This document shows positions 21,766-57,037 of a stretch of DNA of 64,000 nucleotides, one piece after another. The stretch spans positions 2,294,001-2,358,000 of the forward strand of contig NC_087252.1 of assembly GCF_037042905.1 (NCBI RefSeq). Reading direction: 5' to 3'. Position 1 is the stretch's first letter, and the number at the start of each line of letters is the position of its first letter. The position numbers and the translations under genes were made by a program. The notes under the pieces are model-generated. The model did not search any database, was not told the DNA's origin, and worked only from the letters and a program-made list of their open reading frames with translations. This stretch comes from Lytechinus pictus (Eukaryota).

Positions 21766-24700
21766 ATGAAATCAGTCCGAAGATTCGCAGGCCTTGTCAC
21801 ATTGGGAGGAATAGCATCTGTGTTGTTACTTCTGAACTTAAAAGATCCGACAACATTCAAACCTATAACGGAGGATAATAGCGAGAAAATTATAACACCT
21901 TCAGCACATCCATTGTAAGTAACTTGAGAAATCACCATCACAGTGGATATCATGAGGATGACATGCGTAAGAACCTGGGACTTACATAGTAAATAGCTGT
22001 TTAAAATTTAATACAAAGCTGTTTACAATATGGACCATCAGTATTTGTTTAAATAGTTACGATAAGCATGATAAGTGTTTTAAATCTTAAACCGAATAAA
22101 TTAAGCGTAGTTTAATTTGTGAAACAACTCTTGTTAGGTTTAATAGTGAACATCGTTTTAAAAATTTTAAACAGCGTTTTTACTCTGATAATCGAGGCCG
22201 GTCTCAAGGCGACATTGTGTCGTCTTTCGTCTTGGTCTCTATATGTGTAAAGTGTTCAAAGTCTATGGAATAATGCTTTCTCAAGCGACCTTGTGAGTCG
22301 GAAGTACCAGCCTTGACTTGCATGGTCAAAACCCTCTATATGACTTGAGCTTTAGGCTGTCATTGCCATTCAAACAATATCACAGCCATTCCCCTTGTAT
22401 ACGACAAATAAATGGGACATGCTTAAGGATGTGGTATCGGACTGTAACTATTACGTCACAATCTATCAAAAATTATCGATTGACTAATTATGTAAATTGG
22501 AATTCAACTCCTTATGAAATTTCAATATAAACTAATATATTTGTAGCAAACGATGCTTTCATTTTAAAATTGTCACCATAAAACATGTATAAAACATGTA
22601 TTTTGTATTTCTCCAAATCAAATATTAAGTCTCCTCACCACAAAGTCAAAGTAAAAATAAATAATTTATATTTGAACGTTTCAAAGTCAGTAAAATTCCT
22701 TGGAGTTTTACTGGATGATCAACTTTCTTTTCGAGACCATCGCATGAATTTACTTAATAAGATTTCCAAGAATGTTGGTATCATCAGTAAATTACGTTCT
22801 ATTTTACCCGAAAAACAATTATTTATGTTGTACAACTCACTTGTACTTCCTTTTATCTATTATTGTAATATTACTTGGGGAAACATAGGAAAAAATCAAT
22901 TAGAACCCTTTCATAAATTGCAGAAAAAAGCCTTACGTATCTGTACTAAATATTCCTATTATGCATCATCTGCCCCCCTCTTTTTTGAATTAAAAACACT
23001 AAATATTTATCATATTTATGAATTTAAAGTTGCAGTTTTGATGTATTATATTAAACAGGAAATGGCACCTGTAAACATAATGATTTTTTTAAATTATAAT
23101 AATGATTTTCACCAGTATAATACTCGTTCAGCTTCTCATTTTCATCTTCCACTGACCTCTAATAATCAAATTCATAATTCTTTTAAACATGCAGGACCTA
23201 GAATTTATAACAATTTAGATCCTATAATTCGTTCTTGTTCAACTGCCTCCTCATTTAAAATTTTACTTAAAAGACAATTAATTAGTGGTTATTCATCTTG
23301 ATTCCCTTTCCCTTTTCTAAACATACATGTGTACCCTCCTCCCCCCTCTCTCCTCTCTCTTTCTCTCTCTCTCCTTTGTTTGAGTGCAATGGGTCATGGA
23401 TGTGTGTTGGGTGTGGGTGATTCTGTGTTTGATGTATGAATATATAATGATTACGTTATGATTATTTGAATACCTGTAAAGGGGCAACTGCCTAACAAGA
23501 TTTTAATATTTTTGGTTGCCTCTTACCATATGTTGATTTTTCTTTTACATGAATGTATAAATTATATTTATTTGTTGTATATTAATTTTTTTTTGTATGT
23601 TTTGTCACATTTATGCATTTATATACATGTATTATGTTATTTTACATTGTATTTAAATATTTTTATATGGTTAATAAATGAATTGAATTGAATTGATGTC
23701 ATGGTAAATACAGATGGGGTTCGTTTCTTTAGATCTTGCTCGGTGAGAATTTTTTTTTTAATGAAATCTAATTTGAAAAAAAAAAAACAGAGTGAAGATT
23801 ACCAACTAAGAAAAGCACGCATGTGACAGTAAATTATCACTGCTTGAAACATAGGTCCGATATCTAGCTGAAATGCCATGAATGTGTTGTACATTTCTGA
23901 GAAATTAAACAACTTCTACCATTCTACGCCCCCCCCCCCCCGGGGGACCATGTTGACAAATATCAAACATGAAATATCTTTAGATTTACCCAAAATATAA
24001 TGGGGTTTTATTTTATTTTTTTTCTCCCTACAGTCGGATCGCACCAGGTTCTCTTCGACACCTTGCCAACGCCACAGCGAGCCAGGCCCATTCGGGTAAA
24101 GATGAAACCGGAACCTCTACTGAAAAAATAACACATTCCGACTCACCATCTAGTACGAACACGAGCAACGAACATGGGATCGTCGATAGATTTTTAAAAG
24201 ACCAACAGATCATTGGAAAAGACCCACATGGTGGGATGACGATCTCGGACACCCCGAGTCCCTCTTTGGGTAGACATGGGGACAACTCAAGTGGACCGGA
24301 AATGCGTGATGAAACTAAATGCATCCCTCGAAAGAACATGATGTACCTTAAAACTCACAAGACCGGGAGCTCTACATTACAGAATATCATTTATCGCTAT
24401 GGTGATGATCATGGGCTGACGTTTGCCCTTCCAAAAACAGGTGTATACCTTGGGACGCCCTCATTGTTCAAAAGGACATTTCCCATCCCGTCACCAACAG
24501 GAAAATACAACATGCTTGCTAATCATGCAAGATATAATCGTCACGGTGAGTATACCGTAAGGAGATATTGTAACCGCGACGCAGAACAAATTCAAGAACA
24601 TAAAAAATACGTGATCAAATACCCTTCGTGACAATGAACAACCAAGAAGTCTTTGTCGAGTACTGGGGAATCAAAATGGCAGTTTCGTTCTGAACTCTGG

Positions 24701-25933
24701 ACAAACGACAGAATTATTTGCGATTTTTCGTCAGATCAGAAACCTAGATTGAACTGCTGTTTCGGTTCGTTCTGCGTGGTGGTGCAAACAAATCCGCTAT
24801 TCAAGCAAACACAAAAAGTTATCAAAACGTTCTATTACCAAATAAACGTTCATAAGACGCTTAGACAACGTTTAAAACGCTTTGTGTTTGCTCTGTGATT
24901 AATTCATTTCAATGTATTTCCAATTTCTTTAACAAATGCGCATGCTAATTTTACCTTCTCTAGTGCTGAGTAGCTCCTATTTTAAATTGTATCTACATGT
25001 ATATTTTCAGAACTGCTTCTACAACTGCTGCTGCTGAAGTTTCTGACGTCAATAATGAAATTAAAACCTCGACTCGTAGCATTGAATAAAAGATTTGGCA
25101 GTGTATTCTAGAAGATAAGACAAAGTAGCCCTTATTTTTTTTAACATATTTCTTGAACTTTTATTCATATCTTATTATTCCCCTCTTTCACCATAGAAAT
25201 GGCGAAAATCATGTACAAGAACGCAGCGTATGTGACCATAATCCGGCATCCCTCAACTCAGTTTGAAAGTATGTATTCCTACTATGGATTTAAAGGTACC
25301 TTCAAGGTGGACCTTGAAGGGTTTGCGGACAAACCACAGAATTATTTTCGAAGACAGAGTACTACTCCTTCACATAGTGCCCTTAACCCAACGCTTTATG
25401 ACCTAGGAATGTCCAAACTGCAGATGAACAATGATGGCGCTATTCGGAATAAAATCACTACTTTGGGGAATGATTTCGATTTAGTCCTAGTTGCAGAGCA
25501 TCTTTTAGAATCGTTAGTTCTCTTAAAGGAGTTAATGTGCTGGGATTTGAGCGATGTGACGTTTTTCTCAGCCAATGCAAGAACGAAATCAGAAGTGGAC
25601 AAAATGTCCAAGAGAACGTTTGAACAACTTTACAAATGGAACCACGGTGATGCCCTTCTGTATGAACATTTTAACCAAACGCTTTGGACGAAGATAAAGG
25701 CATACGGTCAGGAAAGAATGGACAGAGACGTCAGGACGTTAGATAAAATGAACAAAGCACTAAAAGAAAAATGTCTTGATGGGACCAAAGCTGAAATGAG
25801 TGTCTCTGCATTAGTTAGCCGTTATGTTGTACGCCTAAGTATGAAGGATAACATTGAGTGCGTTAGAATGATCCGACCGGCCATTCAGTATCTAGAGTCA
25901 CTAAAAAAGAAACAAAGGATACCGGCTGGGTGA
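21766..25933 (+). CDS. Galactose-3-O-sulfotransferase-like type II membrane sulfotransferase, copy 1; exons 21766-21914, 24034-24545, 25197-25933
   Basis: N-terminal signal-anchor MKSVRRFAGLVTLGGIASVLLLL, 5'-PSB loop YLKTHKTGSST, 3'-PB motif IIRHPSTQFES, FDLVLVAE, and WNHGDALLYEHFN. Splice phases 2 and 1 join in frame at canonical sites. Confidence 0.88.
22585..23696 (+). mobile_element. 5'-truncated CR1/L2-group LINE (ORF2 C-terminus and 3' UTR) in the first coding intron of sulfotransferase copy 1
   Basis: ORF 22585-23301 contains VKFLGVLLDDQLSF, LYNSLVLPFIYYC..WG, LQKKALRIC and SAPLFFELKTL. The element ends with AATAAA followed by a (AATTG)n tail. Confidence 0.8.
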
Positions 25934-34056: not shown

Positions 34057-34205
34057 NNNNNNNNNNNNNNNNNNNNNNNNNNNNNNNNNNNNNNNNNNNN
34101 NNNNNNNNNNNNNNNNNNNNNNNNNNNNNNNNNNNNNNNNNNNNNNNNNNNNNNNNNNNNNNNNNNNNNNNNNNNNNNNNNNNNNNNNNNNNNNNNNNNN
34201 NNNNN
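34057..34205. other. Run of N (assembly gap or mask)
   Basis: N characters. Confidence 0.99.
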
Positions 34206-34835: not shown

Positions 34836-34982
34836 NNNNNNNNNNNNNNNNNNNNNNNNNNNNNNNNNNNNNNNNNNNNNNNNNNNNNNNNNNNNNNNNN
34901 NNNNNNNNNNNNNNNNNNNNNNNNNNNNNNNNNNNNNNNNNNNNNNNNNNNNNNNNNNNNNNNNNNNNNNNNNNNNNNNNNN
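34836..34982. other. Run of N (assembly gap or mask)
   Basis: N characters. Confidence 0.99.
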
Positions 34983-35502
34983 TCACCATTATTATCAGCA
35001 GGAGGACATGATATCAGCGCCAAAACAAGCCTTATCATTTATGTATCAATAATAAAAACAATAATAATAATGATGATAATAATAATAATATTAATAATAA
35101 TAATAATAATAATAAAAACGATAGTGGCTACTTATGTAGCGCACAGAACACTTTCACTGCTCATGGCGCTTCTAGAAAAAATAAATATACACGCAATTAT
35201 CATTGACCATGTTAATAATTCACTTCATTTTCGCTTATTTATGGTCGATTGTATTCAGGTTTGATGCGATGAACGCAGTCAGGAGGTTTGTGAGTGTTGT
35301 TGTATTAGGAGGAGTCGCATCGATGCTGCTGCTGTTCCTCGTTTCAAACATACCGACAAAGTTTATTAGTAGTTAAGGATGAGACCTCATACCTAATTGA
35401 CCTTTGAGTGACCTTTGACCCCAACTTCCGGTCACTGTTGACCCCGTGACCCCACCTTCCGGTCAATCATGACCTTTGACCTTTGGGTACGCGGTAAACA
35501 GG

Positions 35503-35762
35503 AAATTGGATAATGACTCCGCGTGGGGAAGCGATTTTAATTGGATAATGACTCCGCGCGGGAAGCGATTTTAATTGGATAATGAAGCGCGGGACGCGAT
35601 TTTAATTGGATAATGACTCCGCGTGGGGACGCCGTCTTAATTGGATAATGACTCCGCGTGGGGACGCGATTTTAATTGGATAATGACTCCGCGTGGGGAC
35701 GCCATCTTAATTGGATAATGAAGCGCGGGACGCGATTTTAATTGGATAATGACTCCGCGTGG
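35503..35762 (+). repeat. Subterminal ~30-35-bp tandem repeat (TTAATTGGATAATGACTCCGCGTGGGGACGC...), about 8 units; about 5 inverted units at ~40085-40230
   Basis: Repeated ATTGGATAATG core read directly. Confidence 0.9.
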
Positions 35763-36677
35763 ACGGATATGTCAAGCGCCTCGCATGACGTCACCGGCTA
35801 CGCAAGCACCGTGATGTCATCCCAGGGAATTACCCTTATCCCACCGTATCGCTATTGAACCACCGTGGCGCAATCGTCACGTATAGGATACGATGCACAA
35901 AACAGACGTATGATATACACAGTTAATTCCTATTGTAACGGTTCTTTCTCCGCCTACCAGCAGATATGTCAAGTGCCTCGCGGTTCACGAATCGAGCACC
36001 CCACTCACAACCAACGCGCGTCATTGAACTTGTGATATCCTATTGGAAAGGTGAAAACCGACTCTCTGCCTCTTATTACAACAATGATTGGTAATCCAAC
36101 ATGTGATTATAATAGTGACATCTCAAGCTCTACTCATTCCAGACTTTTACACATCAAAACTCTCTGACTTTTCCATACTGTTTTGTACATACTTCCATAC
36201 TTTTCATTTTAACTCACATGACCTGCACGGCTCTCTGACTCGCAAAAGTATACTACATGCATATTTAAACCAGTAGATGACTCCTTTCAATCAACTTCAT
36301 TCATCCGCAGTACAGATGGTGATAACATGAAACACTATACAGTCAAGGATGATTATTTTATTATTATTATCATTTATTCTATTCCATTTCAATGTAGATA
36401 GGTTCAGATAGTGTATAAACAGCAGATTTTGATACAAAGGTAAAAATAATGTAAGATATGTTCTCAAATTACGTTGTCACAACAAAATAATTAACTGTTC
36501 ATTGTTAATATTAAAGTGAAGTTCTCGTTTTTCTATTTCTTCGCTTAACTTAATGGATTGTAACACATGTCTATGGATGGCATTCAGAAAATATGAACAC
36601 AATGAAGTTCAAACTGTCATTTATGTTGACGGCGTTTTCTTGGATTATTATTATTCGACAAGCTGATGTTTGTGCCT

Positions 36678-37325
36678 TTAGTTGTAGGTTCCATCTTCAC
36701 CCTCTGTTTCTTCTCCACCATCATTATCGTCATCGTCACCTTGATACTGGAATAAACCATCGAATTGTGAACCATGCCTGGCAAACACTCTCTGTACGGC
36801 TTTCCGGAATTCCATGCCATTCTCTAATCTTTCCGTGAGATCGGACACGATTTCGTGATTGATGTCAGCGTCTTCGAGGTACACGTTCTGCTGCAAGAAC
36901 TGAGAGTACAGATCGAAAAAGATGCGTTTGACTGCCCACATTAGTTTCACGTGAGCCTTTGCTTTAGCGTCTTCTTCTTCCATTCCTTCTGAGATGTATT
37001 TCTGATATTTTTCGTCTCTCAAGTCCTTGGTGGCCGTCATGGCTTGCTCTAACCATCCTCGATAAGCGAGGTTGTCTTCAGTTTCTTCCATGTTTGCTGT
37101 CATTGACGATTCGTGTCCATCGCTTTCTGATACGCTCGTTTCGGAATCACCGTTGGATTCTTCAACTCTTTGCATTTGAGAGGATGGGTCGGATTCTTCA
37201 TCTTCACTCGTTTCTTCTCCAGTATCATGCTCAATTTGTTCATGCCTCTGCATGTTATATTTCCTACTAAAAGTTTTATCGCATCGTGAACAAGCGTAAC
37301 GGTTGGACATATCCAATATATTCAT
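36678..37325 (-). CDS. Element-borne protein: single C2H2 zinc finger, acidic linker, helical domain, acidic tail (left-arm copy)
   Basis: YACSRCDKTFSRKYNMQRHEQIEH matches C-x2-C-x12-H-x4-H. The ORF is intact and intronless. The first ATG (MNILDMSNRY) was used in place of the TTG start in the ORF track. Confidence 0.75.
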   Translation of the reverse strand: MNILDMSNRYACSRCDKTFSRKYNMQRHEQIEHDTGEETSEDEESDPSSQMQRVEESNGDSETSVSESDGHESSMTANMEETEDNLAYRGWLEQAMTATKDLRDEKYQKYISEGMEEEDAKAKAHVKLMWAVKRIFFDLYSQFLQQNVYLEDADINHEIVSDLTERLENGMEFRKAVQRVFARHGSQFDGLFQYQGDDDDNDGGEETEGEDGTYN

Positions 37326-37417
37326 GCTGACTCGATGATTATTTGTTGGGAAATGAAGAAAATTAACGTTCAAACTTGTAATTATACGTAATCATGAAAC
37401 GCGCGCGAAGGTACTTT

Positions 37418-38378
37418 GATTCTTACGGATTTTTACGCATTCTTACGGATTCTTACTCATTCTTACGGATTCTTACGGATGTTTACTCATTCTTACTCAT
37501 TCTTACTCATTCTTACGGATTTTTTACGGATTCTTACGGATGTTTACGGATTCTTACGGATGTTTACGGCTTCTTACGGATGTTTACGGATTCTTACTCA
37601 TTCTTACGGATTCTTACTCATTCTTACTCATTCTTACGGATTCTTACGGATGTTTACGGATTCTTACGGATGTTTACGGATTCTTACGGATTCTTACTCA
37701 TTCTTACTCATTCTTACGGATGTTTACTCATTCTTACTCATTCTTACTCATTCTTACTCATTCTTACGGATTTTTTACGGATTCTTACGGATGTTTACGG
37801 ATTCTTACGGATGTTTACTCATTCTTACTCATTCTTACTCATTCTTACGGATTCTTACTCATTCTTACGGATTTTTTACGGATTCTTACGGATGTTTACG
37901 GATTCTTACTCATTCTTACGGATTCTTACTCATTCTTACGGATGTTTACGGATTCTTACGGATGTTTACGGATTCTTACGGATGTTTACTCATTCTTACG
38001 GATGTTTACGGATTCTTACGGATGTTTACGGATTCTTACGGATGTTTACGGATTCTTACGGATGTTTACTCATTCTTACGGATTCTTACGGATGTTTACT
38101 CATTCTTACGGATTTTTTACGGATTCTTACGGATGTTTAGCGTGGATGAACATATTTTCCTTGAGATTATATGAAGGCATTGATTAATCCGTAAGAATCC
38201 GTAAGAATGAGTAAACATCCGTAAGAATCCGTAAGAATGAGTAAGAATCCGTAAGAATCCGTAAACATCCGTAAGAATCCGTAAACATCCGTAAGAATGA
38301 GTAAACATCCGTAAGAATCCGTAAGAATGAGTAAGAATCCGTAAGAATCCGTAAGAATGAGTAAGAATCCATAAGAAT
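37418..38378. repeat. Central 10-bp variant minisatellite: forward block ~37418-38138, ~48-bp unique spacer, inverted block ~38187-38378
   Basis: Units GGATTCTTAC, GGATGTTTAC, TCATTCTTAC and an occasional 11-bp GGATTTTTTAC. Confidence 0.95.
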
Positions 38379-38471
38379 CAAAGTACCTTCGCGCGCGTTT
38401 CATGATTACGTATAATTACAAGTTTGAACGTTAATTTTCTTCATTTCCCAACAAATAATCATCGAGTCAGC

Positions 38472-39122
38472 ATGAATATATTGGATATGTCCAACCGTTA
38501 CGCTTGTTCACGATGCGATAAAACTTTTAGTAGGAAATATAACATGCAGAGGCATGAACAAATTGAGCATGATACTGGAGAAGAAACGAGTGAAGATGAA
38601 GAATCCGACCCATCCTCTCAAATGCAAAGAGTTGAAGAATCCAACGGTGATTCCGAAACGAGCGTATCAGAAAGCGATGGACACGAATCGTCAATGACAG
38701 CAAACATGGAAGAAACTGAAGACAACCTCGCTTATCGAGGATGGTTAGAGCAAGCCATGACGGCCACCAAGGACTTGAGAGACGAAAAATATCAGAAATA
38801 CATCTCAGAAGGAATGGAAGAAGAAGACGCTAAAGCAAAGGCTCACGTGAAACTAATGTGGGCAGTCAAACGCATCTTTTTCGATCTGTACTCTCAGTTC
38901 TTGCAGCAGAACGTGTACCTCGAAGACGCTGACATCAATCATGAAATCGTGTCCGATCTCACGGAAAGATTAGAGAATGGCATGGAATTCCGGAAAGCCG
39001 TACAGAGAGTGTTAGCCAGGCATGGTTCACAATTCGATGGTTTATTCCAGTATCAAGGTGACGATGACGATAATGATGATGGTGGAGAAGAAACGGAGGG
39101 TGAAGATGGAACCTACAACTAA
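38472..39122 (+). CDS. Element-borne C2H2-finger/acidic protein (right-arm copy)
   Basis: Identical to the left-arm protein except F/L in VFARH/VLARH and one extra Asp. AATAAA at ~39430. Confidence 0.75.
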   Translation: MNILDMSNRYACSRCDKTFSRKYNMQRHEQIEHDTGEETSEDEESDPSSQMQRVEESNGDSETSVSESDGHESSMTANMEETEDNLAYRGWLEQAMTATKDLRDEKYQKYISEGMEEEDAKAKAHVKLMWAVKRIFFDLYSQFLQQNVYLEDADINHEIVSDLTERLENGMEFRKAVQRVLARHGSQFDGLFQYQGDDDDNDDGGEETEGEDGTYN

Positions 39123-41380
39123 AGGCACAAACATCAGCTTGTCGAATAATCCAAGAAAACGCCGTCAACATAAATGCGGGCATAAATGACAGTTTGAACT
39201 TCATTGTGTTCATATTTTCTGAATGCCATCCATAGACATGTGTTACAATCCATTAAGTTAAGCGAAGGAAAAGAAAAAAACGAGAACTTCACTTTAATAT
39301 TAACAATGAACAGTTAATTATTTTGTTGTGACAACGTAATTTGAGAACATATCTTACATTATTTTTACCTTTGTATCAAAATCTGCTGTTTATACACTAA
39401 TTGAACCTATCTACATTGAAATGGAATAGAATAAATGATAGTAATAATAAAGAATCATCCTTGACTGTATAGTGTTTCATGTTATCACCATCTGTACTGC
39501 GGATGAATGAAGTTGATTGAAAGGAGTCGTCTACGGGTTTCAATATAGTATACTTTTGCGGGTCAGAGAGCCGTGCAGGTCATGTGAGTTAAAATGAAAA
39601 GTATGGAGGTATGTACAAAACAGTATGGAAAAGTCAGAGAGTTTTGATGGGGGAAAGTCTGGAATGAGTAGAGCTTGAGATGCCACTGTTATCAGGATTA
39701 TAATCACATGTTGGATTACCAATAATTGTTGTAATAAGAGGCAGAGAGAGCCGGCTTTCACCTTGAATAGGATATCCCAAGTTCAATGACGGGCGTTGGT
39801 CGTGAGTGGGGTGATCGATTCGTGAACCGCGAGGCACTTGACATATCGGGTTCGACATATCTGCTGGTAGGCATAGAAAGATAATTTTTTCAATAGGAAA
39901 CTGTGTAGAAATCATACGTCTGTTTCGTGCATCGTATCCTATACGTGACGATTGCGCCACGGTGGTGCAATACCGATACGATGGGATAAGGGGAATTCCC
40001 TGGGATGACATCACGGTGCTTACGTAGCCGGTGACGTCATGCGCGCGGAGGTTAATTAAATTTCCTGTAGATCGAGTCCCTACGTGGACTCATATCCAAT
40101 TAAGATGGCGTCCCCACGCGGAGTCATTATCCAATTAAGACGGCGTCCCCGCGCTTCATTATCCAATTAAAATCGCGTCCCGCGCTCCATTATCCAATTA
40201 AAATCGCTTCCCGCGCTCCATTATCCAATTTCCTGTTTACCGCGTACCCAAAGGTCAAAGGTCATGATTGACCGGAAGGTGGGGTCACGGGGTCAACAGT
40301 GACCGGAAGTTGGGGTCAAAGGTCACTCAAAGGTCAATTAGGTATGAGGTCTCATCCTTAACTACTTTTATTCTTCCAAGACATAGTGATGCCAATGGCG
40401 AAGCAAGATTTACAGCATATTCAGCAAATCAAGGGTAAGTGCTTATTACTTCAGTGATATTGTTGGACATTGTACTTTTTTCGTCACCCTAAAACGTAGG
40501 CCTATGGGGGAGGGGTCATCGACCCCGCCACCGTCCAAAAAAAAAATCCCCGACCGTTCCGCTGTCTTACGTTTTCTAAGCATCTTTTCAAACCCGTTGG
40601 TCTCACTTTTATATATGAAACGTGGAAGACAATACCTCCATCCCCCCCCCCACCGAAAAGTAAAACGAATTAAATTAAGTCCGGGACCAACATTTCTTAG
40701 ATTTTAGATTCTGGCTGCGAATATTACCCGTGTTTGAGTCGATCATAGTTTTCGATCAAATACTGTCTTTGATATATCTTCCATTTCAGCTGACAATAAA
40801 TTTAAAATTGTAAGGTACACACCTTTTTTATTAATTACCAAGCATAATGCGGGTTTTCTTTGCCCTATCAACTTTTCTCTCCAGTCGGACCGCACGAGGT
40901 TCTCTTCGATACCCCGACAACGTCACAGTGAGTCTGGCCCATTCAGCTGAACATGTAGTTGCAGGAGCTTCTAACCAAACGAAAACCAGTTTTGATTTCT
41001 TCTTCAGTGCCAACACGAGCACCCAACCTAGCAGCGTCGGTGAATTTGAAAAAGAAAAACTAGGTGGGATGACGAGTGCAGACACCATTAGCCCTTCTGG
41101 ACAGGAGAGGCATGATGAAACTAGATGCGTCCCACGAGAAAATATAATGTACCTCAAAACCCACAAGACCGGGAGCTCTACATTACAGAATATCATTTAT
41201 CGCTATGGTGATGCTCATGGGCTGACGTTTGCCCTACCAAAAACAGGTGTACATCTTGGGACGCCCTCATTGTTCAACCGGACTCATCCTGTCAAGTCGC
41301 CCTCAGGAAAATACAACATACTTGCCAATCATGCAAGATATAACCGTCCCGGTGAGTAGATACTAAAAGCTCTTGCATTT

Positions 41381-41841
41381 ACCGTTCTCATTACGCTTTC
41401 AAAAAACTAGTTTACTGGAAACCGATTCAGGAAACCAGTTTGGAAGATCGCTTTGCTAGCGTTCTCACTTGATCACACGAAAGTGGTTTTCAAAATCACT
41501 TCACGTAAAGCGCTCTTGTTGCTATGGAAACGCTCTCAGTGGGGTGACACGTTTCGCGCGAAATTCGAAACCGCAGCATAGGCATTCTACACCTGTCGTG
41601 TGGAGTAGCGCGCTCAAAATGTGCGAAGATCGCTTCCCGAAGAACGGCTGTGTCCTCACTTACGCTAAAACCACTTTAACGAGGCAAAGCGATCTTAAAA
41701 TCTACATCGCGAGGTGGTTTTCCAAACTGGTTTGGAAGATCGCTTCCAAGACCGCTTTGACCGTTCTCACTACGCGTTAAACTAGTTTCCACTAAACTAG
41801 TTTCCAGTAAACTAGTTTTAGGAACGTAGTGAGAACAGCCT
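41381..41841. mobile_element. MITE in intron 2 of sulfotransferase copy 2
   Basis: Inverted ends GTTCTCATTACG...AAACTAGTTTACTGGAAA / TTTCCAGTAAACTAGTTT...CGTAGTGAGAAC. Confidence 0.65.
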
Positions 41842-44800
41842 CTAAGGGCATCGATTCCTTTGAAATGCAATTAAAATCACAATGGAGAGCTGAGAGGCTG
41901 TTGTCTAAAGTTGGTGGACTGGGACAGCAGATCATCCGAATATTTGCCGCGGACGAACAATTGCAAATATGTCAGCCAGAGTCATGTTATGACAATGCTG
42001 AACTTGCATTTTCAAAGGAATTGGTGCGTCGTAAAGAGTTTCCCAGACTTTCCCCCGTAGTAAATGCGAAAAGTCCAGAGTAATACAATGACTACAATCA
42101 CTTTCTGTCAACGCTACTATACAATACAAATCGGACACATCCGAGAATGAATCAACAATTGAAGAGTCTAGTTGAAAAGGGGTGAGGTCAACTTTGGACC
42201 ATTCCGAGAAAACAAAACATGTTTGTTATTCTCACTTACGGCAATATTCTTAAGAGAAACTAAATTGTCATGATGTACTACCCTATCATGTAAACATAAA
42301 ACTGGATATAAATATATATTTACCTGTCTTCAATTTTTTCTGTATAGATTTTTTTTCTATATATCATTGTAGACCTAACCCCTTTTGCAAGCAAACTGTA
42401 ATGAATTCAATCTCTTTTGATTAAAAAAGGTGATTTTATTCTTTGCCAATTTCATTCACGTTTTCATTTAAAATTCAATGTTTTGTATCATCAGGCCGAC
42501 TAAAAATTTAGAGGTTGAGAGACAAAAACAATAAAATTAAGGAAAAATGGACCTAACCCCATTTTACAAATGAGTTCTTCAGAAGAGTTTAGTTGCAAAA
42601 GGGGTTATGTCCACTCTAAGCAAATTTTTTTTTTAATTCTCCCATATTGCATTATTCTTATGTGAAACTGAATTTTCATAATACCCTACCATGAGAACAT
42701 AACATTGAGTGTAAAAGAAATCGTCCTGTCTTCATATTTTATAAGATATTCTTTTCCAAAAAAAATATGTTTGGACCTAACCCCTTTTGCCATTTTAGTT
42801 CACTTTTTAATGGGAATTTCATCTTTTCTTTGGTATCATCTTATAAAGCTACTAAAAATGTATACAAGATCTAATCAAATTTGATGAAAAATGGACCTAA
42901 CCCAAAGAGTTGTGCCGTACGGCCGCCGGAGAGCAAATGTGACCGAGGTATAAATCATGAAACAAATTATTTACCAAGGCTTCGTGATCTGTCATGAGAG
43001 GTGGGCTCGGTCACATTTGCCACGGCGGCCGCAGTCGAAAACAGTCGTTTGAACATTTTTTGTACCAGCTACAAATAGCTTGTTTGAAAAAAAAATCAAT
43101 TAAACGGCTGTTTTCGACTCGCCGTACGGCCGCCGGAGAGCAAATTTGACCGAGGTGTAAATCATGAAACAAATTATTTTATCCCTACAACCATATATGC
43201 AATCAAAATTCAAATGCCTTCGTCCATTGGTTTTATGAGGGAGACGCAACTAAAGCACGTCAGAAATAACTTTTTTCTTACTACGGAAACAGTGTCGACG
43301 CTATTGGTCCGATTTCGCAAAGTTGGTGTTGGGAATGCGTGGTTTTAAACCTTGGTTAGGTAGATGTCTCTGTGTTGATTACGCTTATTCATCGCGTATG
43401 TCGAGATAATAAATATATGCTTACATCGCAGGTATGTTTAATGGACCATTCGTAATATTAGGTTACATCATTAGCCCATTGTTTTAAATATAACGCGTCA
43501 ACTATTTGTATTATTTATTTGCATTCTTTAATAGTAGGATGAATAATTGCGATAACTTAAGTTAAAACCGTCAGTTCTGATCACGCTCTCTCACGGAAGC
43601 GAAATCGCGCATTCATTACTGGACACTTTTTTCCATCATGTTTATATTGTATACGCGCTGAATTACGCGGGCGGATTCAAAACCACCTTTATGATTCCGG
43701 CCATCTTGCTTTGATCTCCAACTGTCCCTATACTAATTTTGCCTTATTATCCATATTTTCAGATCTTTTGAAATATGTTAACTATACATACGACTGCCTA
43801 CGTTTCTGTTTGTCAATAATGCACGCAAGTTGCATGTGTCTACATGGTACATACATATTCTCCAGCCCGATATGTACTATGCGTTTTGTCATTTTGCCTT
43901 ATCCTTCTAATTCAATAATTGAAGAATTATGAAACTAATTATAAACAATATATTGAAAAATTGCTTTCAAATAAAATATAAATAATTGTACATACTATTT
44001 CTTTTTAAAAACCAAGATTTCTCCATCGTCGGTTTCATTTTCATCTAATAAATCATGTTTTTAAAAATGACATCCGAAAGGATACCATGCTTTTTTACCT
44101 CTCTTTTCCAACTGAATCTTTGGAAGAAGGTAATGCTAATACCGAGCATTAGATTAAAAAAAAGTTACCTGTTTTATATTTTTCATCAAGTGAGTGTACT
44201 TATTTTAATCTAATGCATAAAATAAAATAAAACAGAGGCAATGCGCCTGCGAAGAGATATCTATTACCAAATCAAATATTTTATAAAATACATTTTCGTT
44301 TTTTCTTTCACCATAGAAATGGCCGAGATCATGTACAAGAACGCAGCATATGTGACCATCATCCGGCATCCCTCCACCCAGTTTGAAAGTATGTATGCCT
44401 ACTATGGATTCCAACGTAACTTCAATGTGACCTTGAAAGGGTTTGCGGACAAACCACAGACATATTATAGAAGAGAGATAACTGATCCACACCACACCGC
44501 ACTCAACCCGACGCTGTATGACCTAGGAATGCACAAACAGGAAATGGCCGATGAGGGCGGTATTCGGAATAAAATTGCTACTTTGGAGGATGATTTCGAT
44601 TTAGTCCTAGTTGCAGAGTATCTTTTGGAATCCTTAGTCCTCTTGAGAGAGTTAATGTGTTGGGATTTGAGCGATATGACCTACTTCTCATCCAGAGTAA
44701 GAACGAAATCAGAAGAGGACAAGATGTCCGAGAGAACGTTTGAACAACTTTACAAATGGAATCATGGTGATGCCCTTCTTTATGAACATTTTAACCGAAC

Positions 44801-46026
44801 GCTGTGGACAAAAATAAAGGTGTATGGTCAGAAAAGGATGGAAATCGATGTGATGAAGTTAGAAAAAATGATCAAAGCACTAAAAGACAAATGTCTGGAT
44901 GGGACCACATTTTTTAAAAAGGTCACTCACTATGTTCTAAGAGAAAGTATGAGGGACAATGTCCAGTGCATTAGAATGATTAGACCTGCTTTTAAATATC
45001 TACAAACACTCAGAGAGAAGCAAGGAATACCGATTGGTTAAAAGTTTGAAACTATATCGTTGCTTTACAAGAATGTTTGTTAGCCAGTTATCCATTTCTT
45101 TAACAGGGCTATAAATTCATGTTGTTTGTTAATTAATTTTGACCATTTTCTCTTTTATGATGGTTTACGTTTCTATTTATTATTTTTTTTCACAAGGACC
45201 TTATGCATGTGACGTCATAATCTCAAAGCGCCCTCCTACAGAGGAAATGGGAATATGCGTGAATGTAGTTTTCAGAGATGTGCCAGCTGCACATCACCAA
45301 GGCACGCAAGGCAACATCAGTGAAAATATCCTTTAAAATGGCGGCACGGTGATGCCGATGTATAAGGTCTATTCATAATACGCATATTCGCCCACACACA
45401 CCCACCCACACACACGCACACACCAATATGTATTATGTATTATTGTGTCACGTTTGGGATAAGTCTTTACATGTGGTTGCTATGCGACCATTTGGAGCGT
45501 TTTGCTATTGTATTGTGTATTGATAATGACGCTCAATAAATATTGCAATAAATAAAAGCGTGAAAGGTAGCTGCAAACCTAAAACCTCTTACAAGTGTGA
45601 CGTACAACATTTGGTAAATATACATTAAACAATCCATGAAAAATACAAGATCAACAACATTGAAGTCAAGGGATTAAATACATGTACTATGGTCTTGGTG
45701 TTAACAGCAATTCGTTAATTAATATTTTAAATTCCGACAGATCTGGGACAGATTTTATCTATAAAAAAAAACGATATTCCAAATATAAGCCCATCATAGC
45801 TTCATTAGAGTTAGAAGTACAAAATTTATGTACATATTGGTTATCGAACACCCTTGAAATAAGAGTAACCAATATGTCGAAGAAAACGGGATTGCTGTTA
45901 TAATACATATATACACATTGAACTCTTCTGTAGTAAATCGAGGCTGCTCCGAATATCTATGAAGATTGTACATATATATGAAGATTTGTGTATTTGCGTA
46001 TTTGTGTTACATTCATTCATTATTCA

Positions 46027-48876
46027 TTAATAAAGGATGGGGTAAAACAGAAAAGAAAACGTTGGAGTGGTGCCCCATGCTATTAATATGATGAAACAAA
46101 ACATCGGACTAGTAGGTGAAGACTCAGAGTAACTTGCGCACGGTATAGATGTCATTTCGAATTCATTTTGTGGGCTAGTTACACCTGAAGCAGGGGACCA
46201 GTTTTCACATAAGTCGTGTTCCATGTTGGACAACTTAACAAGCATCCTTCCACTGTAACTAGAAGGAGACATACAATGTACTCTGTCGAAACCGGACCGC
46301 AAAAGCCAACTCTGAAGGTTTCTCAAATTGCAGTCCCAGGGGTTTGGATCAAGGTGGATCCTTTTGGACAGTAGAGGAAGCGCCGATGAATCCAAGTACA
46401 CCAGGCGATTCCCACCAAGCCGGATCGTCAGGCTACTGCGAATGATGAAAGATGATTGTGCTATGAAGTTTATCTGGTTGTCCTGAAGATTGATTTCATC
46501 AGCAACATAACATGAAGTGAATGCATGCCGTGGCACGATGTCAATAGAATTATCCTGCAGATCAATAATCTGTATCCGTGGCAATTTTCCAAAAGGGTTT
46601 CCGGAAAGTGTGGAGATTCGGTTATGGCTTAGGTCAAGATTCCTAAGTAAAGGGGCGTCAATGATAGGCAGGATGTCTAGTGCATTGCAGCAAAGTTGAA
46701 GCGAGAATCCGAGGGATTTGAATTTAAAATGCCAAGACACACCAGGCTGCTGTTGAAACATTGTCACATTGTTCATTTCAACAGCCCAAGATACATTGCT
46801 GCAGTTTTGTATTTGTATATACTCCCTTCCTATCGCAGTTTGCGAGAGTGAGATTGTTTCGAGACTACCTATAATTCTCGAGGAAAGATATTTCAAGGGG
46901 TTTCCTTCAAGGTTTACTTTCACTAACCGCTTGCAGTTCTGAAAAGCATTCTCGTCTATAGAAACGATCATATTCCACCCAGCGTCTACCTCTCTTAACT
47001 CACACTCTGTCTGACAAAACGTGACGTCACTTCCGCAATTTGAATTTCCATGAAAATGCATGATGGAATTGTGGGAACATCTGAACACGTGGGTTCTTGT
47101 AGGAAGAGATATATTACGCAGTCGGTTATAGTTGACTAAAAACTGATCCAATTTAATCCCAATCAAGTCTGGAGAAGCAATGTTTGTTAATAGATTATGA
47201 CTGAGGTCCAGTTTAATCAAACGCCGAACAGAACTGATGTTTAACTGATCCATAGATAGCAGTTGGTTGTTCTGTAAAACGATTTTAGCTACATTATGAA
47301 TCCTAATTGCTTCATCTGCTCGAAGTCCTATTACATTCGAACTGATGTTGAAAAACAAAGGATTATCTCGAAAATCTGTGTGTATAAACTCCACTATTTC
47401 AATTTCGTTGACCTGTAGCTCAAGACGTCGTAGTTTGTACCAGAAAGTGACGTCAGGGATTTTTGTGAGTTTCTTGTGATGCAGTTTGAGGATAGAGAGA
47501 TTTGGACAACCGACAAAGGCGCCAGGTACAATGAATGCTACTTGATTATCAGATATATCAAGGATCGTGAGATAATCCAACTTGATTACCTCATCAACAG
47601 TACTGATGCGATTTCCAGACATGTAAAATACAGCTAACTCTTTATTTTCATTTATTGCGGTCCAGTTGACAGTAAAGATATTGTTATCGGATAGGCTTAG
47701 GTAATATAGACTTGAAATGTTCTTAAGAAACCTTGCGTTATCGATCTCATTTTCGTCTAGGTATAACTTCCTAACAGAACCGCACCAATTGTCACTCATG
47801 TTCCCTTGAAGAACGAATTATGTGATACTGTTGTTTCGAAAGTCTATGACCCTAAGCTTTGGATACAAATAGGGGCTAAAGGTTATGACTCCAATCAGTT
47901 CAGAGTGTTTGACAGTAAGGCTCCTCAATTTGGGAAGTGCTGGGAGGTCACTAATGCTGCTTACCAAAGACTTTGAAATGACTATAACCTCAATGAAGTG
48001 CACATCCATGAAGCCTATAATATCCTGTAAATGGCTAATTCCCATACCACTTATGTATAGATGATTTATTCTGCTGGAAGAGTTTTGGTTGATATGTGTC
48101 CCTTTCTCCAGATGTATCTGCAGTAGTGTGGTGCCCTGAGGCCAGTGTGAAATCTGCACAACGTGTATTGGGTTACCTGATAGAAAAAGTTTCTGAAGCT
48201 TTGTTAAGTTCCGAAGATCAGGAAGGGTCCTGATACCATTGTCACGGAAGTCAATTAAAGTGATCAGATGAACCGACTGTATTTGGTGAATGTCAAAAAC
48301 CCGAATATTTGATGATACGGCAGTAATGATGTTAACCGGAAGTGACAGGTTCAGGAATCCTACTATGAAGTTGTTTGAAAGGTTTATCAGGGATTCACGG
48401 TCGCCGGCAAAGCCAAATGTCTGTTGACTGTGGCAGTTCACCCTCTGAATAAAATTGAATGCAAGGTTGATGATGAGGATTGGGGGAATAGTGGAAATAT
48501 CGATCAGACAATTCTCATCAACGTGGAGAGTCGACAGTTTAGGAAGTCTATCGAAAGCTTGAGGCTGGATAGCCGAGATGAAATTCGCTGTTAGGCGCAG
48601 GACAGCAAGGGCTGGTAATGGAAAGAAATCACCATCTTGTATATTGGTGATCAGGTTACGAGACAGGATGAGATTTTCTGTTGTCAAAGGAATACCTGCA
48701 GGAACAATCCTGAGATAACGGTTGCTGCATTCGACTTTGGTTTGCCCGACACAGCTACAGGTCTCCAGGCACAAAGAGTGGTTTAGCCAAGCCGACGAAG
48801 ATGCAGTTGAAACAAGAAGGCACGCCAGAATTGCCACGTGATAGCCTTCATATATGCAGAAGTGCCAAGGTTCCAT
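46027..48876 (-). pseudogene. Intronless extracellular LRR protein (signal peptide, LRRNT, many LRRs, LRRCT, hydrophobic C-tail, no TIR) interrupted by one in-frame TAA at 47820-47818
   Basis: Signal-like VAILACLLVSTASS, LRRNT CLETCSCVGQTKVECSNRYLRIVPAGIP, repeated LxLxxNxI, and LRRCT NPWDCNL..LQSWL...VHCMSP. The 352-aa and 590-aa ORFs are in the same frame, linked by *FVLQGN. Confidence 0.85.
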
Positions 48877-50580
48877 TGCAAACTCAGTTCAAACATTCAA
48901 ATTATAGAGTCACAAAATAGCTCGTAATTTCATTATCAAAATGATATCGAAATGTGCTTGCATAATTTGTTTCCACTCACTTTATATCTAGTTTCAGCTC
49001 GGTACGTCAAAGTCATAACCTGATCCATATTGTGTGTGTGTGTGTGTTTTATGGTTGAACACTATTGGGCGAAGCTAGCATAGTACATCTGATTTGTAGC
49101 TTATACACGGAATATCCACCGATGGAATATTAAATGAATAAACTGTCAAAATGACAAGAAATGTAATTACCTTCTCCTAAAAAAAAATCGGGAGAGATAA
49201 TACAAATATTTTGTAGTCTGATTTTGTTGATTGCTTTCTTTATACCAATCAATTATGACTCTTTACTTGGATGTTGAAACATAAAAGCAATTTGCTTATG
49301 TGCCTTATCTTTGGTAAGGTCTATACTTCAGAGGATGGTTGTGCCATTGTTTTCATGATTTGAACTGAATTAGACTAGTTGCACTTACAACTGACTCAGG
49401 CACTTTAAAAGCACTTTGATAAATTTATGCTCGTTTACTCTATTACAAGACAAGAGAAATAGGAAATATCATAATCATCATTATCTATGCTAATATAGAG
49501 ATAATCAATGTTCTTATAATGAATGTTTATATCATTATTATTATCTTTATCATGACTTATTCTTTTCTTATGACTGTCATCACTTTTTCATCATATTGAA
49601 ATATTATCCCAATATGTTTTTCAAAGAGGTGGAGCTTCTAATCTGTTCTAAATCATGACGAGGTTTGGTACCATTTTCAACATGATTTTCTTCCTTTTCA
49701 TAATATCACATTTGATTAACAAAAACGATTCATGCAGAATTTGGAGATAATCTGATGGTGTTTTCTTCATTTCAATAGACAGTCCATGTCGATTTGTAAC
49801 TTCTTGTATTTAGCATGGTCGTAGGGGCCACTGGCGGATCCGGGGGGCACAGCCGGCCCGTGCCCCCCCCCCCTCCCCTTGAGAAGCAAAATTAAAATTT
49901 ATAATGTAAAAATACCGTTAAAACTGAGGAGTGCCCCCCTTTTGAAAATGAAGACTTTTTTCCCATGTCATTTTATTCGGGGACGAAATATCCTTAAATT
50001 TTGGTTAAAAACCTTCCTTTTTTTGGTTTAAGGGGGGGGGGGGCTTGTCAAATTTTCCTAGGAAAAATGTGCCCAACTTTTGGAAAATCCTGGATCCAAC
50101 CATGGACCTATTTCAAATAGGAAAAGTAGTAGGTCCATGATCCAACCCTGATAGCGGCTTACCTTGTGTCGGTTGAATATGTAAAGCGGAATTTAATTTG
50201 ATTACAACTGGAATGATTTTATCAAAAAATATAAGCCTCTACTGCGATGTCGCTCTTTTCTGTGCAGCCCCAATTAACATTTTGATGAGACTTGTCAGGG
50301 ATATACCATTTTTCACTTGGTCGGAGACAGGTCTAATCCTCGTGGATATGAGCTTACTCTAAATCTTTCCCCAGGTCAGTCAAAAGAACGCAGTGACCCT
50401 TTTTGGCAGAAAATAGCCTCTTTTAACCCTTTTAAACGCATAATTTGTCAATGAATTTCATTAAACATTATCCTGAAGGAAATCAACTTTGCCAAGAATT
50501 CTGAGTGAAAACCACTGGCTAAGCTGCTAACTCATTCACGATTCCTTTCATTTATGACAGAAAGTGATGACAATAACAAC

Positions 50581-51174
50581 TTAAAAAGGAAAATGAAACC
50601 TTTGGATCAAGATAGCTTGTGGGAAAACAGAAAACAGAAAAAATCAAATCAACGAAAGTTTGAAAAAAAATCTAACAAATAATGATAAAGTTATGAGCAT
50701 TTGAATACTGCGATTACTAATGCTATGAAGATCATCCAATTGGCAATGCGACAAAGATGTGTGATGTCACTTGTTAACAACTTTCCCAGTACTTTTGTAT
50801 ATATTTCACTTAAACTGCCTCTTTTATCACATCTATCAGTAGATCATGCATTCTTTCTATAGGAGGGCATGTAATACAATTTTCGAAGAAAACATTATGG
50901 ATAAAGAGTTTGTATCACCATGAGAAAGAACTAAAAGATACATTTTGTGGGTATTTTATAGTCCATTAAAGAGAAAGTTGTTCACATGTGACATCATACA
51001 TCATTGTCGCATTGCCATTGGGAGGATCTCTATAGCATTAGTGATCGCAATATTCAAATGCTCATAACTTTCTGATTATTTGTCTGATTTTTCTCAAATT
51101 TTCTTTGTTCTTATTCTTTGATCTTTCTCTTTCAAAACAAGTCCACATGTTCCAAGGGTTTCATTCCCCTTTAA
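50581..51174. mobile_element. TTAA-flanked foldback MITE (Kolobok/piggyBac-type target); related copy at 53688-54281, duplicate at 63303-63896
   Basis: Ends TTAA-AAAGGAAAATGAAACC / GGTTTCATTCCCCT-TTAA, with inverted arms containing GTTATGAGCATTTGAAT...CTAATGCTAT. Confidence 0.7.
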
Positions 51175-51224
51175 TGATTGGCTAATTATTCATCACGATA
51201 TCTACATCGTCATGATAAAGGATA

Positions 51225-51439
51225 CACTCTAAGAACACTGAGTAAAATGTTTTACCCAATTTTGGGCAGAAAGGGAACTTGCTGATGCATGTTTGCTGGG
51301 CTTTTTTTTAAAACCCCATTTTGTGCTATTTCAACGCAACTTTGCGTAAAATTCACAAAACATTTGGTATCCGTTTATCCAACCAACATGTATGTTCCCA
51401 TTTTTGCCAATATTGCATGGGTAAACCTTTTTTAGAGTG
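51225..51439. mobile_element. CACT-terminated MITE with TA on both flanks
   Basis: TA-CACTCTAA ... TTAGAGTG-TA. Confidence 0.55.
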
Positions 51440-54281: not shown

Positions 54282-57037
54282 GGCCTTGTCCCACTCTGGC
54301 AGACAGACACAAAACGTATTCATTAAGAACACAGCGGACGAGTAAAATTTCGGGATGGCTCCATTCGTTTTCAACTGCTTCAGAAATGGACAAAATAATT
54401 AGCCCCAAAAAAATGCAAAAAACATAACAGAAAAGAGCGGACGTGGGTAATGATTATATTTTAAATGATTATGTCTTTTAAATGGATGTTCATCTGAAAC
54501 CTAGCGGATGAAAATGGATAGAAGTGGATGACAGCTACGAAGGGGTTACCGGGGGTTTTGAATACTTTATTTACGAGATATAATATACACGCTTACATCC
54601 TCTCGATTTCCGTGCAACTAATTATGTATAGACGTTCCAAGTACCTTATCTTTCCTCCCTCTTTCAGTTGTCAGCTGCAGTGGATGTGAGTTGTAAGGAT
54701 GCCCAGAGTATGCAGAGAGGATACAACGGACGTTTAACGCATAATAACGGACATGGAACGTTTGTCGGTCGTGCGTGTTACGGATTTACTTCGTACACGG
54801 CGGAAAGTTCATCCGTTCTAAAAGTTTTGTGCAGCTCAAAACCCTTTGCGCGGATGAAATCACAGTGGACGGATACTCGATGGATAGAGCGTATGAACCA
54901 CGTATGCAATGTGTACACGACGGACGCATTGCGTTTTCTAACGGATGGCACGATATTTTTCTATTCTGCATTCTCTTTGCATCCGTAACCGTAAGTGCAG
55001 TGTCCGGGCCTTTAAGCAACTCTTCATCCCGTAGGAGTTCTTTAATTACTTGGCATGATACAGCTGCCGTTTGTCTCGTGTTCATCGAGCCTGAAGAGGG
55101 GGATGGTCCAGCCATTGTGAAGAATAACAAAGCCTAAGCTTAACAAGATGTTGGAATGCGGTTAAGTAGGCCTTTGCTCTCAACTAATATTGTTTAGAAC
55201 AAGAAATAGTGAATAATGGATATTACGAGCAGTATTCAAATTAAAATGTAGGAAAGTGCGATAAACTGGAAGTTTGTATAGACAACAAGAAGATTTCAGG
55301 GTCGCTGGAACATTACCGTATTATAAGCTTGGTACTCCCTTCACACACACAGAAGGTGTCAAATCAATATGATTTTCCCTGGCTTATACTCCAATGATAA
55401 ATTAAAATTGTTAAATTGTTTATTAAAGTCAATCTGATATAGGTGATACTCACAGTCTGTGTACTGTAAATCAAGTCCAAGACTCAGTCGAAAAAGAGGT
55501 AAACTTTCAACAAATTATTACCATTGAGGCTAATATTTATGATTATCAGTATAATTTATTTCATTTTTGTTCTATTTTATTTCATGTTTTTATTTATTTT
55601 ATTTCATTTAATTGATTTATTTTTTTTATTATTTTTTTCTTGGGGGGGGGGGGGGTTACTTCTATTAGGATTTGTTTATTATAGTAAAGCGGATAAGCCG
55701 AACAATTGTGCAAATTATGACTAAAGCATGAAACTTTCACAAGTATTAGTATATGCCGTAAGATTAATTTTAAAGATGGGAGGTAAATTAATAAATGCCA
55801 TTTTCGGGCGTTGCCATGGCAACGTATTGATTACCCAAAATGACATACATTCCCATGTAAATGGTAAATAAACATGATAAAGATGACCAAAATTATAATT
55901 TTCAGGCTCCCAATTGAATACATATAAAATTTAGAAATATTCAAGATCACCAAGATAGTTCAAATTGGTCCGTTGCCATGGCAACGGCTTGTTTTTCCCC
56001 AGAAAAATAAAAATGTTGCCTCATTTGAACAAAAAATACAGAAAGTGTTCTGCAGGAGTTCTTTATAAAGATAAAAAAATTATGTTGCCTTGGTAATGCT
56101 TGAATTAAATCTAAAAAGAAACAATTTTGGAAAGAGCCCGTTGCCATGGCAACAGCTTATTTCCCTCAGGGTCCAAGTCAACGAATAATCCATTGCCACC
56201 AAGCCCAATCTCTCTCTCTTAGGTGATCCCTCCACTGTTTTGGAGATTCTCAGAAACGAATATATCAATTCCAGTCCGATAAGTTAGGGATTCAACATCA
56301 GGTTGGAGCGGTGGTCATGAATTTTATGTAGAAAAAAGAGAGATTTGAGGAGCAGACTATTATTTACTTCGGAAGGGAGACCAGGTTGATGGGTTAATAG
56401 GGTAGCACTCGTAGCAATCGTAACATTAACTTCGTAAAGGAAAAGGAACGAAATTCTGCAAAAAAGGAAAACTTCTGAAGGGATCGAGTACCACCATCGT
56501 TGAAAATCAAAACTGGTACTAAATGATCCGTTGCTATGGCAACAGGCCATTTGGAACATTGATATTTATCGAATTCAAGTATTACCAAGGCAACATCAAT
56601 GTTTATCATTCTAATTGGTTCATGCAGACCACTCACTGTAATATATTCCTCTAAATGAATTATAAACAATATATTGAAAAATTGCTTTCAAATAAAATAT
56701 AAATAATTGTACATACTATTTCTTTTTAAAAACCAAGATTTCTCCATCGTCGGTTTCATTTTCATCTAATAAATCATGTTTTTAAAAATGACATCCGAAA
56801 GGATACCATGCTTTTTTACCTCTCTTTTCCAACTGAATCTTTGGAAGAAGGTAATGCTAATACCGAGCATTAGATTAAAAAAAAGTTACCTGTTTTATAT
56901 TTTTCATCAAGTGAGTGTACTTATTTTAATCTAATGCATAAAATAAAATAAAACAGAGGCAATGCGCCTGCGAAGAGATATCTATTACCAAATCAAATAT
57001 TTTATAAAATACATTTTCGTTTTTTCTTTCACCATAG

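Follow-up and report, generated by a model that had tools for sequence, protein, structure and literature searches.

Palindromic elements with Polinton ends and a zinc-finger gene in Lytechinus pictus: a probable family of helper-dependent satellites

Introduction

Non-autonomous derivatives of Polintons (Mavericks) have borrowed ends, lack the machinery of the autonomous elements and are presumed to be mobilized in trans; those treated by Kapitonov and Jurka in 2006 are reportedly not described as whole-element palindromes, as endowed with their own conserved gene or as helper-changing. Foldback transposons, viz., Drosophila FB, Galileo, and the sea-urchin TU elements, use cut-and-paste transposases and have other ends and target site duplications (TSDs) of 7-9 bp. 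Esteban et al. are said to have obtained, in 1997, palindromic mini-genomes of phage phi29 in vitro, in protein-primed reactions that pass through hairpin intermediates and involve template switching. Here, we analyze a 4,999-bp element of the sea urchin Lytechinus pictus that resembles each of these in part, contained in a window of 64,000 nucleotides (the whole stretch of DNA analyzed: contig NC_087252.1, positions 2,294,001 to 2,358,000 of the forward strand, assembly GCF_037042905.1). Polintons display (AGT)2//(ACT)2 and (AG)n end motifs, terminal inverted repeats (TIRs) and perfect 6-bp TSDs (PMC8097293; PMC3014272), with the end repeats expected to serve protein-primed initiation (PMC8097293), and snapback defective genomes exist in adeno-associated virus (AAV; PMC8235507).

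The element has the end motifs, TIRs, and 6-bp TSD of the autonomous Polintons, and differs from these ~17-kb elements in being 5 kb long, nearly all palindrome, free of enzyme and capsid genes and endowed with two copies of a gene of its own. Like the non-autonomous Polintons, it lacks machinery and has borrowed ends, which are held in common with a resident autonomous Polinton. It resembles a satellite in that its sequence is largely unrelated to that of the helper and in that its own gene is kept by selection; with a snapback genome it shares the inverted duplication around a short loop with origins at both ends, but apparently not the derivation from the helper genome. Its arms are long, inverted, and internally repetitive as in FB, Galileo, and TU, unlike which it has Polinton ends and a 6-bp TSD. 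It shares with AAV snapback genomes and phi29 mini-genomes the inverted duplication of one origin-bearing end and a dependence on a helper that is likely in its own case, and with the phi29 forms also a presumed use of template switching and hairpins; whereas those forms are pieces of the helper genome made anew, the satellite is 86% unmatched to its helper, inherited, integrated with a TSD and represented by diverged families. Transpovirons (PMC5499653) are likewise small and linear, have TIRs and genes of their own and need a larger DNA virus, but this virus is a mimivirus, an SF1 helicase is among their genes and they lack a palindromic layout, whereas the satellite's likely helper is an endogenous Polinton.

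We propose, with a probability of about 0.68, that the element belongs to a family of palindromic, enzyme-less, helper-dependent satellites that carry their own zinc-finger gene and replicate via hairpin or copy-back intermediates. The direct basis for this proposal is the sharing of ends, the 6-bp TSDs, the identity of arms within copies, the variable captures of helper DNA and the selection on the gene. Non-autonomous Polintons and snapback genomes are already known kinds, and the absence of this satellite type from print is not established: the literature searched holds no palindromic, gene-bearing, helper-switching Polinton satellite, in a search that did not reach Kapitonov and Jurka 2006, Pritham 2007, Esteban 1997, or Repbase. 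In the available portions of individual papers, the strings 'palindrom' and 'nonautonomous' occur 0 times (PMC8097293), no nonautonomous Polinton copies are reported in the anole (PMC3014272), and palindromic or gene-bearing Polinton satellites go unmentioned (PMC6431247).

Results

Organization of the element and its dispersal in the genome

The element (35368-40366) starts with AGTAGT, finishes with ACTACT, is flanked on both sides by the perfect 6-bp TSD TTTATT and has a perfect TIR of exactly 148 bp, all of which had been claimed in an earlier note on this DNA and were recovered exactly. That note had further described ~2-kb inverted arms around a ~48-bp apex, in line with which we measured inverted homology that extends inward over 2,051 bp on the left and 1,988 bp on the right to arrays of a 10-bp minisatellite, with an unpaired spacer of 46-51 bp (38135/38141-38185) between the arms (Table 1). 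The arms are 99-100% alike over the open reading frame (ORF) and its leader only, and ~90% alike at 35520-36700 (53 mismatches and 22 gap events). Both stretches of N in the window (34057-34205 and 34836-34982) lie outside the element. Neither the ORF list nor tblastn with 11 natural Polinton frames and one sister-family frame yielded a pPolB, integrase, protease, ATPase, or capsid in the element, the only matches having E-values of at least 0.039 and falling mostly in the minisatellite; the absence of these genes asserted earlier is thereby upheld. What had been overlooked is a gene, in the form of an intact, outward-reading ORF in each arm, of 215 and 216 aa. Minisatellite frames of 215-248 aa were rejected as genes, being repeat read-through.

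Searches of the genome (812 Mb) with the TIR returned 121 candidates, the best 40 of which were scored; the apex gave 44 matches at ~40 loci (40/40 candidates scored), and the protein gave 320 candidates, the best 150 of which were scored and consist largely of open frames that form inverted pairs at a spacing of 1-2 kb. We inspected 39 loci, namely the window copy and 38 fetched around matches, which were chosen from the best hits and hence lean to young copies. Paired ends with an exact 6-bp TSD are found at 27 of the 39, with 27 different hexamers; three have paired ends without an exact TSD, and nine show no recognizable second end in the stretch examined. The copies range from 2.8 to 7.4 kb. 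Recurrence of the apex together with different TSDs had been suggested as a check of mobility; the apex is present at ~40 loci, and the 27 loci with their 27 hexamers point to a mobile family. Separately, C17:8134560-8180000 (L022-L026) holds a ~45-kb tandem array of approximately ten truncated satellite units, with the hexamer ATACGC to the left of the first unit and to the right of a late unit.

Table 1. Features of the palindromic element and of the adjoining host exon (positions in the window)
Feature	Position	Strand	Basis or remark
Left TSD, TTTATT	35362..35367	+	sequence
Left 148-bp perfect TIR	35368..35515	+	first 20 nt equal the end of the 17.2-kb Polinton at C21
Left helper-shared end, 395 bp, including 35-bp subterminal repeats (35504-35762)	35368..35762	+	helper match
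Left-arm satellite-specific region, 3' of the gene; mosaic	35763..36677	-	best matches are L048, L046, L029, L019, not the right arm
Left-arm intact 215-aa ORF: C2H2 finger, acidic linker, helical C-terminal domain	36678..37325	-	
Left-arm 92-bp leader, from array to start codon; same in both arms	37326..37417	-	
Left 10-bp minisatellite, ~71 units, AT(C/G)CGT-type core on the gene's strand	37418..38134	-	
Unpaired apex, common to ~40 loci; lacks the nested hairpin that flanks the apex in other copies	38135..38185	.	
Right 10-bp minisatellite, inverted copy, ~19 units	38186..38379	+	
Right-arm 92-bp leader	38380..38471	+	
Right-arm intact 216-aa ORF (P0001), under purifying selection	38472..39122	+	
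Right-arm satellite-specific region, 3' of the gene; 99-100% identical to commonest young copies	39123..40043	+	
Right helper-shared end, 323 bp, including 148-bp perfect TIR (40219-40366)	40044..40366	-	
Right TSD, TTTATT	40367..40372	+	sequence
Host: 5' part of split first coding exon (membrane-anchor-like), Gal-3-O-sulfotransferase-like gene	35269..35367	+	
Host: remainder of same exon, frame kept, GT donor at 40435	40367..40434	+	

Ends shared with a resident Polinton and captured helper DNA

A full Polinton with the same ends, a kind of element whose existence had been put forward as a check, does occur in the genome. The candidate helper, a 17,227-bp Polinton at C21 with the TSD GATCCA and a 161-bp perfect TIR, has frames for an rve integrase, a Pox_A32 ATPase, and a DNA_pol_B_2 polymerase (Pfam), along with a match to a viral cysteine protease in PDB (E 2e-4) and capsid clusters resembling the double jelly-roll (DJR) type in Atlas. 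Three copies of this lineage have ~0.4 kb in common with the satellite, and the outer 0.3-0.4 kb of the window element are ~90% identical to the resident 17-kb Polinton. Two of these three copies have a broken polymerase frame, so that the candidate helper is a lineage and no individual copy. The terminal 20-mer is that of one of the three helper copies in 11 of 30 satellites; across satellites and helpers, terminal positions 9-26 display 16 variants among 30 copies, clustered just inside the invariant AGTAGTTA. The earlier description of the element as two copies of one Maverick end is not supported, since the match to the helper lineage is restricted to the two ends and comprises 718 of 4,999 bp (14%). 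Nor is the supposed plain defective-interfering derivative supported: the non-helper remainder holds a selected gene that was found in none of 25 Polinton/pPolB regions.

The length of the helper's pPolB-side end present in each arm varies among the copies, being 323-395, 545-570, 748, 777, 824, or 1,513 bp, and in L013 a 748-bp capture is found in both arms with 0 mismatches. In L127 (C18:5541500-5551499, 429-6816; TSD ATCATA) the left arm is replaced by foreign Polinton DNA, with 255 bp of helper pPolB DNA (98%) joined to the 2,263-bp end of another Polinton lineage (97%), inclusive of an ORF with a PC4 domain. Taken with the ends and TSDs, these captures suggest that the satellite is likely moved in trans by helper proteins.

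A sister family (family B, with the window element in family A) presents two further kinds of ends. Versions with AGAGAA ends comprise head-to-head palindromes and single-gene units, whose ends are common to a 17,284-bp Polinton at C8 (96% over 378 bp), and versions with AGTAGTATAT ends are tail-to-tail palindromes that are 94% identical over 813 bp to a 14,625-bp pPolB-like element at C19. The TSDs are of 6 bp in all five family B copies checked. Together with the family A ends, these two end types indicate that one gene module is found between three kinds of ends. The C19 element itself (C19:4647614-4662238; L109-L110) has 3,446-bp perfect TIRs, AGTAGT ends, and the TSD ATGGCG. Among its frames are one of pPolB type (1,114 aa when started at its first ATG) and one for a multi-finger C2H2 protein, and none was seen to match an integrase or a capsid protein. 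It looks like an integrated linear-plasmid-type Polinton derivative and has relatives at C15:2.04M and C29:1.05-1.08M. At C8:34645000-34680000, three Polintons of different lineages are adjoining or nested.

Arms and ends re-copied from one template

The arms were compared in 23 copies (46 arms), leaving out L020 and L044, which are rearranged, and copies without both anchors. In 44 of the 46 the closest arm is the partner in the same copy: partners usually disagree at 0-3 positions in 2 kb (at 6 in L043), and the best-matching arm from any other copy is 4 to more than 100 sites, plus gaps, away. The arms accordingly look re-copied from one template, in keeping with the template-copied arms envisaged earlier. 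The same holds for the termini, where positions 9-26 carry the same variant at both ends in 28 of 30 copies, against 11% expected by chance from the 16 variants. Private changes are mirrored as well, such as arm lengths of 1,119/1,119 (L049) and 3,421/3,421 (L107), a duplication in both L030 arms and one TAG stop per arm at C1:14.30M, and in the arrays the units correspond between the arms, counting from their outer ends, over as many as 34 units before diverging.

The two exceptional arms are both those of the window copy (22 of 23 copies being self-closest). Its right arm has 99-100% identity with the young copies that are commonest, and its left arm at ~35820-36720 best matches other sub-variants, with 96-100% identity to L048, L046, L029, and L019 in most segments. 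The window copy is thus likely a recombinant of two variants that would have been inserted before its outer arms were re-equalized.

Fold-back points and a proposed mode of replication

A tight hairpin with a variably deleted tip lies beside the spacer in 11 of 30 copies (strict pattern), L105 has a new perfect apex, and L020 (C6:11935345-11938504) is a 2,760-bp palindrome in which a 777-bp helper end is joined to the apex, the array, and the beginning of the ORF, the new fold lying within the ORF. These three observations indicate that fold-back evidently occurred repeatedly and at several points, mostly in or beside the array. The earlier proposal of an origin by template switching at the minisatellite is not supported as to a fixed point, given the many copies with a tight hairpin next to the spacer and those refolded elsewhere, such as L020. 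In the apex of L016 and L039 the hairpin is tandemly doubled with its central base inverted in one of the two copies, i.e., in a flip/flop-like manner, and symmetric tip deletions are seen in the apex of other copies.

We propose that the helper's protein-primed polymerase would start at the borrowed end, outside the chromosome, and that the new strand might fold back in the central inverted array or hairpin and copy itself. The hairpin would then be converted to a two-ended duplex that the helper integrase might insert, and template switches onto co-replicating Polintons could renew or swap the satellite ends. The C2H2 protein is predicted to bind the AT(C/G)CGT array upstream of its own gene, where it might regulate itself or mark the site of fold-back.

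The zinc-finger gene and its relatives

Both arm ORFs (36678-37325 on the minus strand and 38472-39122 on the plus strand) code for a protein in which a single C2H2 finger (PF00096 with E 2e-5, at the cut-off) is followed by an acidic stretch and by a C-terminal part that is helical. An AlphaFold model of the protein has a mean pLDDT of 60.5 with helices at 86-192; Foldseek of this model against viral models gave no match at E<=0.001, the best VIA structural match (Z 6.5, root-mean-square deviation 5.1, 92 aligned) is at the noise level for helical bundles, and the Atlas neighbors are hypothetical or finger-only. Families A and B share ~71% amino-acid identity, and six unique family B ORFs against a family A reference give a non-synonymous divergence (dN) of ~0.11, a synonymous divergence (dS) of ~0.7, and dN/dS of 0.15-0.17. 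Among 28 unique family A ORFs there are 40 synonymous changes over 123 sites and 50 non-synonymous over 525 sites (ratio 0.29), and 69 of 81 pattern-matched ORFs are full-length. These substitution patterns show the gene to be under purifying selection. Neither tblastn nor a profile of 12 homologs found a full match to the gene in the 25 regions around capsid or pPolB matches; on this comparison, the satellite evidently carries its own gene, separate from the helper Polintons. A 32-kb stretch without pPolB at C14:1097426-1129542, whose ends resemble those of the tail-to-tail family B, contains, close to one of these ends, a broken finger-gene copy of a third type (38-55% identity), and also a nested foldback-like element of 8 kb. 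In the source gene models P0013 and P0016, the initial 70-90 residues of the satellite protein are joined to host exons of sialyltransferase-like and hydroxylysine-kinase-like type, which represents either mis-annotation or read-through from intronic copies.

Beyond this genome, the protein family comprises 81 cluster representatives at E<=1e-10 and 13 at 1e-30, nearly all unnamed and some matched by the finger only, and a search of viral_contigs gave 146 pattern hits with 0 confirmed relatives. Most of twenty distant homologs are on contigs of 1-2 kb. In three metagenome relatives with 36-40% identity, the 400 bp preceding the gene hold 5, 8, and 10 AT(C/G)CGT(A/C) repeats and the downstream side 0, against a mean of 0.1-0.3 and a maximum of 3 in shuffled controls; the contigs of these three are short and show no Polinton ends. 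The corresponding upstream counts are 13 in the window element, 7-8 in family B, and 0 in the broken C14 copy. L129 has a hairpin with 30-bp arms upstream of the gene, and L131, the relative with 36% identity, starts with a palindrome with 102-bp arms folded in the repeat array. As L129 and L130 are close relatives, the conservation of the motif rests on ~four lineages, and we regard the conservation of AT(C/G)CGT repeats upstream of the gene as a lead.

Alternative explanations

The strongest competitor of the helper-dependent satellite, albeit an unlikely one, is that the elements arose by deletion or snap-back from a Polinton-like parent, extinct or not sampled, with the gene in its end or in a very long TIR, and are true defective genomes that do not constitute a separate lineage. 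In favor of this, the pPolB-like C19 element has long perfect TIRs and 813 bp in common with the tail-to-tail family B palindromes, and ~436 bp of it are similar (81%) to the region upstream of the family B gene; the selection on the gene could date from a parent of this kind, and the genome search with the protein scored only the best 150 of 320 candidates. Conversely, no full gene match is present in the 25 regions, the C19 element included, the gene of families A and B, separated by a dS of ~0.7, stands between three unrelated end types, the ratio of 0.29 within family A points to selection during the spread of the satellite, and the relative with 36% identity likewise lies in a palindrome.

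Less likely still is an ordinary non-autonomous foldback element, moved in cut-and-paste fashion by the Polinton integrase with no extrachromosomal replication, the arms being kept alike afterwards through cruciform repair or gene conversion. Conversion can take place between long inverted repeats, and no extrachromosomal form was observed. However, kilobase-scale private indels are mirrored while the TSDs are intact, and drift between arms persists, with 6 mismatches in L043, 9 in L044, 53 in the window copy, and 97% identity in L051 and L061+62; the capture in L127 of helper pPolB DNA and the end of a second lineage in one insertion fits co-replication. A variant in the C17 array that is common to three right arms and not to their partners also speaks against this reading, weakly, being a single site.

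An assembly artefact or one-off post-insertion rearrangement is highly improbable: palindromes can be long-read artefacts and no read spanning the whole element was seen, but different TSDs flank 27 loci, the window arms differ at 53 sites, the host exon frame runs on across the insertion, and the arm sequence is found in contigs of two other runs with two organism labels.

Several observations nevertheless weigh against a palindromic satellite replicating through hairpins. Non-palindromic copies with TSDs exist (L127, L041, and L050, and in family B L059+60 and L063+64), from which it follows that the palindrome is dispensable for movement, and the extrachromosomal and hairpin forms are inferred, none having been directly observed. 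The terminal 20-mer equals that of none of the three helper copies in 19 of 30 satellites, L029 has different variants at its two ends, and the outer arms of the window copy are not equalized. Duplicated copies (L037/L038, L019/L046, and the C17 array, with one unit truncated) show 0-2 differences over ~1.2 kb, too few to judge conversion. The 25 regions from which the gene is absent are stretches of 10-40 kb, some spanning part of an element. The upstream motif was picked after inspecting the sequences, is missing in one of seven cases, and is on the opposite strand in family B. Finally, two ribosomal RNA-depleted RNA runs, ~6% of each of which was read, gave 66 and 11 reads on the satellite from both strands; these form no peaks at start or end, and the usually antisense direction is the more frequent one.

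The host locus

The element sits within the first coding exon of a Gal-3-O-sulfotransferase-like gene, which it interrupts after 33 codons, counted from the ATG at 35269 to the TSD, and the host frame is unchanged past the element up to the GT donor at 40435; this continuity indicates that the two flanks belong together. A paralogous exon at 21766 matches these 33 codons with 53% identity. No empty-site paralog was found, the flanks being unique in the window and the left flank unique in the genome. The gene is the second of a Gal-3-O-sulfotransferase-like cluster (21766-25933 and 35269-45041) and is broken by the element. Further along the window, 43937-51278 and 56658-64000 form a tandem duplication (99.99% identical, period 12,721 bp) with sulfotransferase exons and leucine-rich-repeat frames, which is either very recent or an assembly duplication.

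Implications

The window copy, in breaking a host coding exon, marks the element as mutagenic. The element also defines a protein family with no assigned function and a predicted candidate binding site. Tentatively, and at somewhat less than even odds, these elements might constitute an undescribed class of animal satellites, defined by the AT(C/G)CGT array and a C2H2/helical-bundle gene, which would parasitize Polintons, replicate as hairpins, and switch helpers by end capture. If so, the class would be a eukaryotic counterpart of the phage satellites, written in the germline, and would furnish fossil proof that several Polinton lineages co-replicate outside the chromosome. The replication of animal Polintons is still inferred from their genes, and the small, numerous copies of the satellite record the process: both ends and both arms of an insertion come from one template, and the satellite and two Polinton lineages are joined in single insertions. 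A laboratory animal can thereby serve to test the model of protein-primed replication outside the chromosome.

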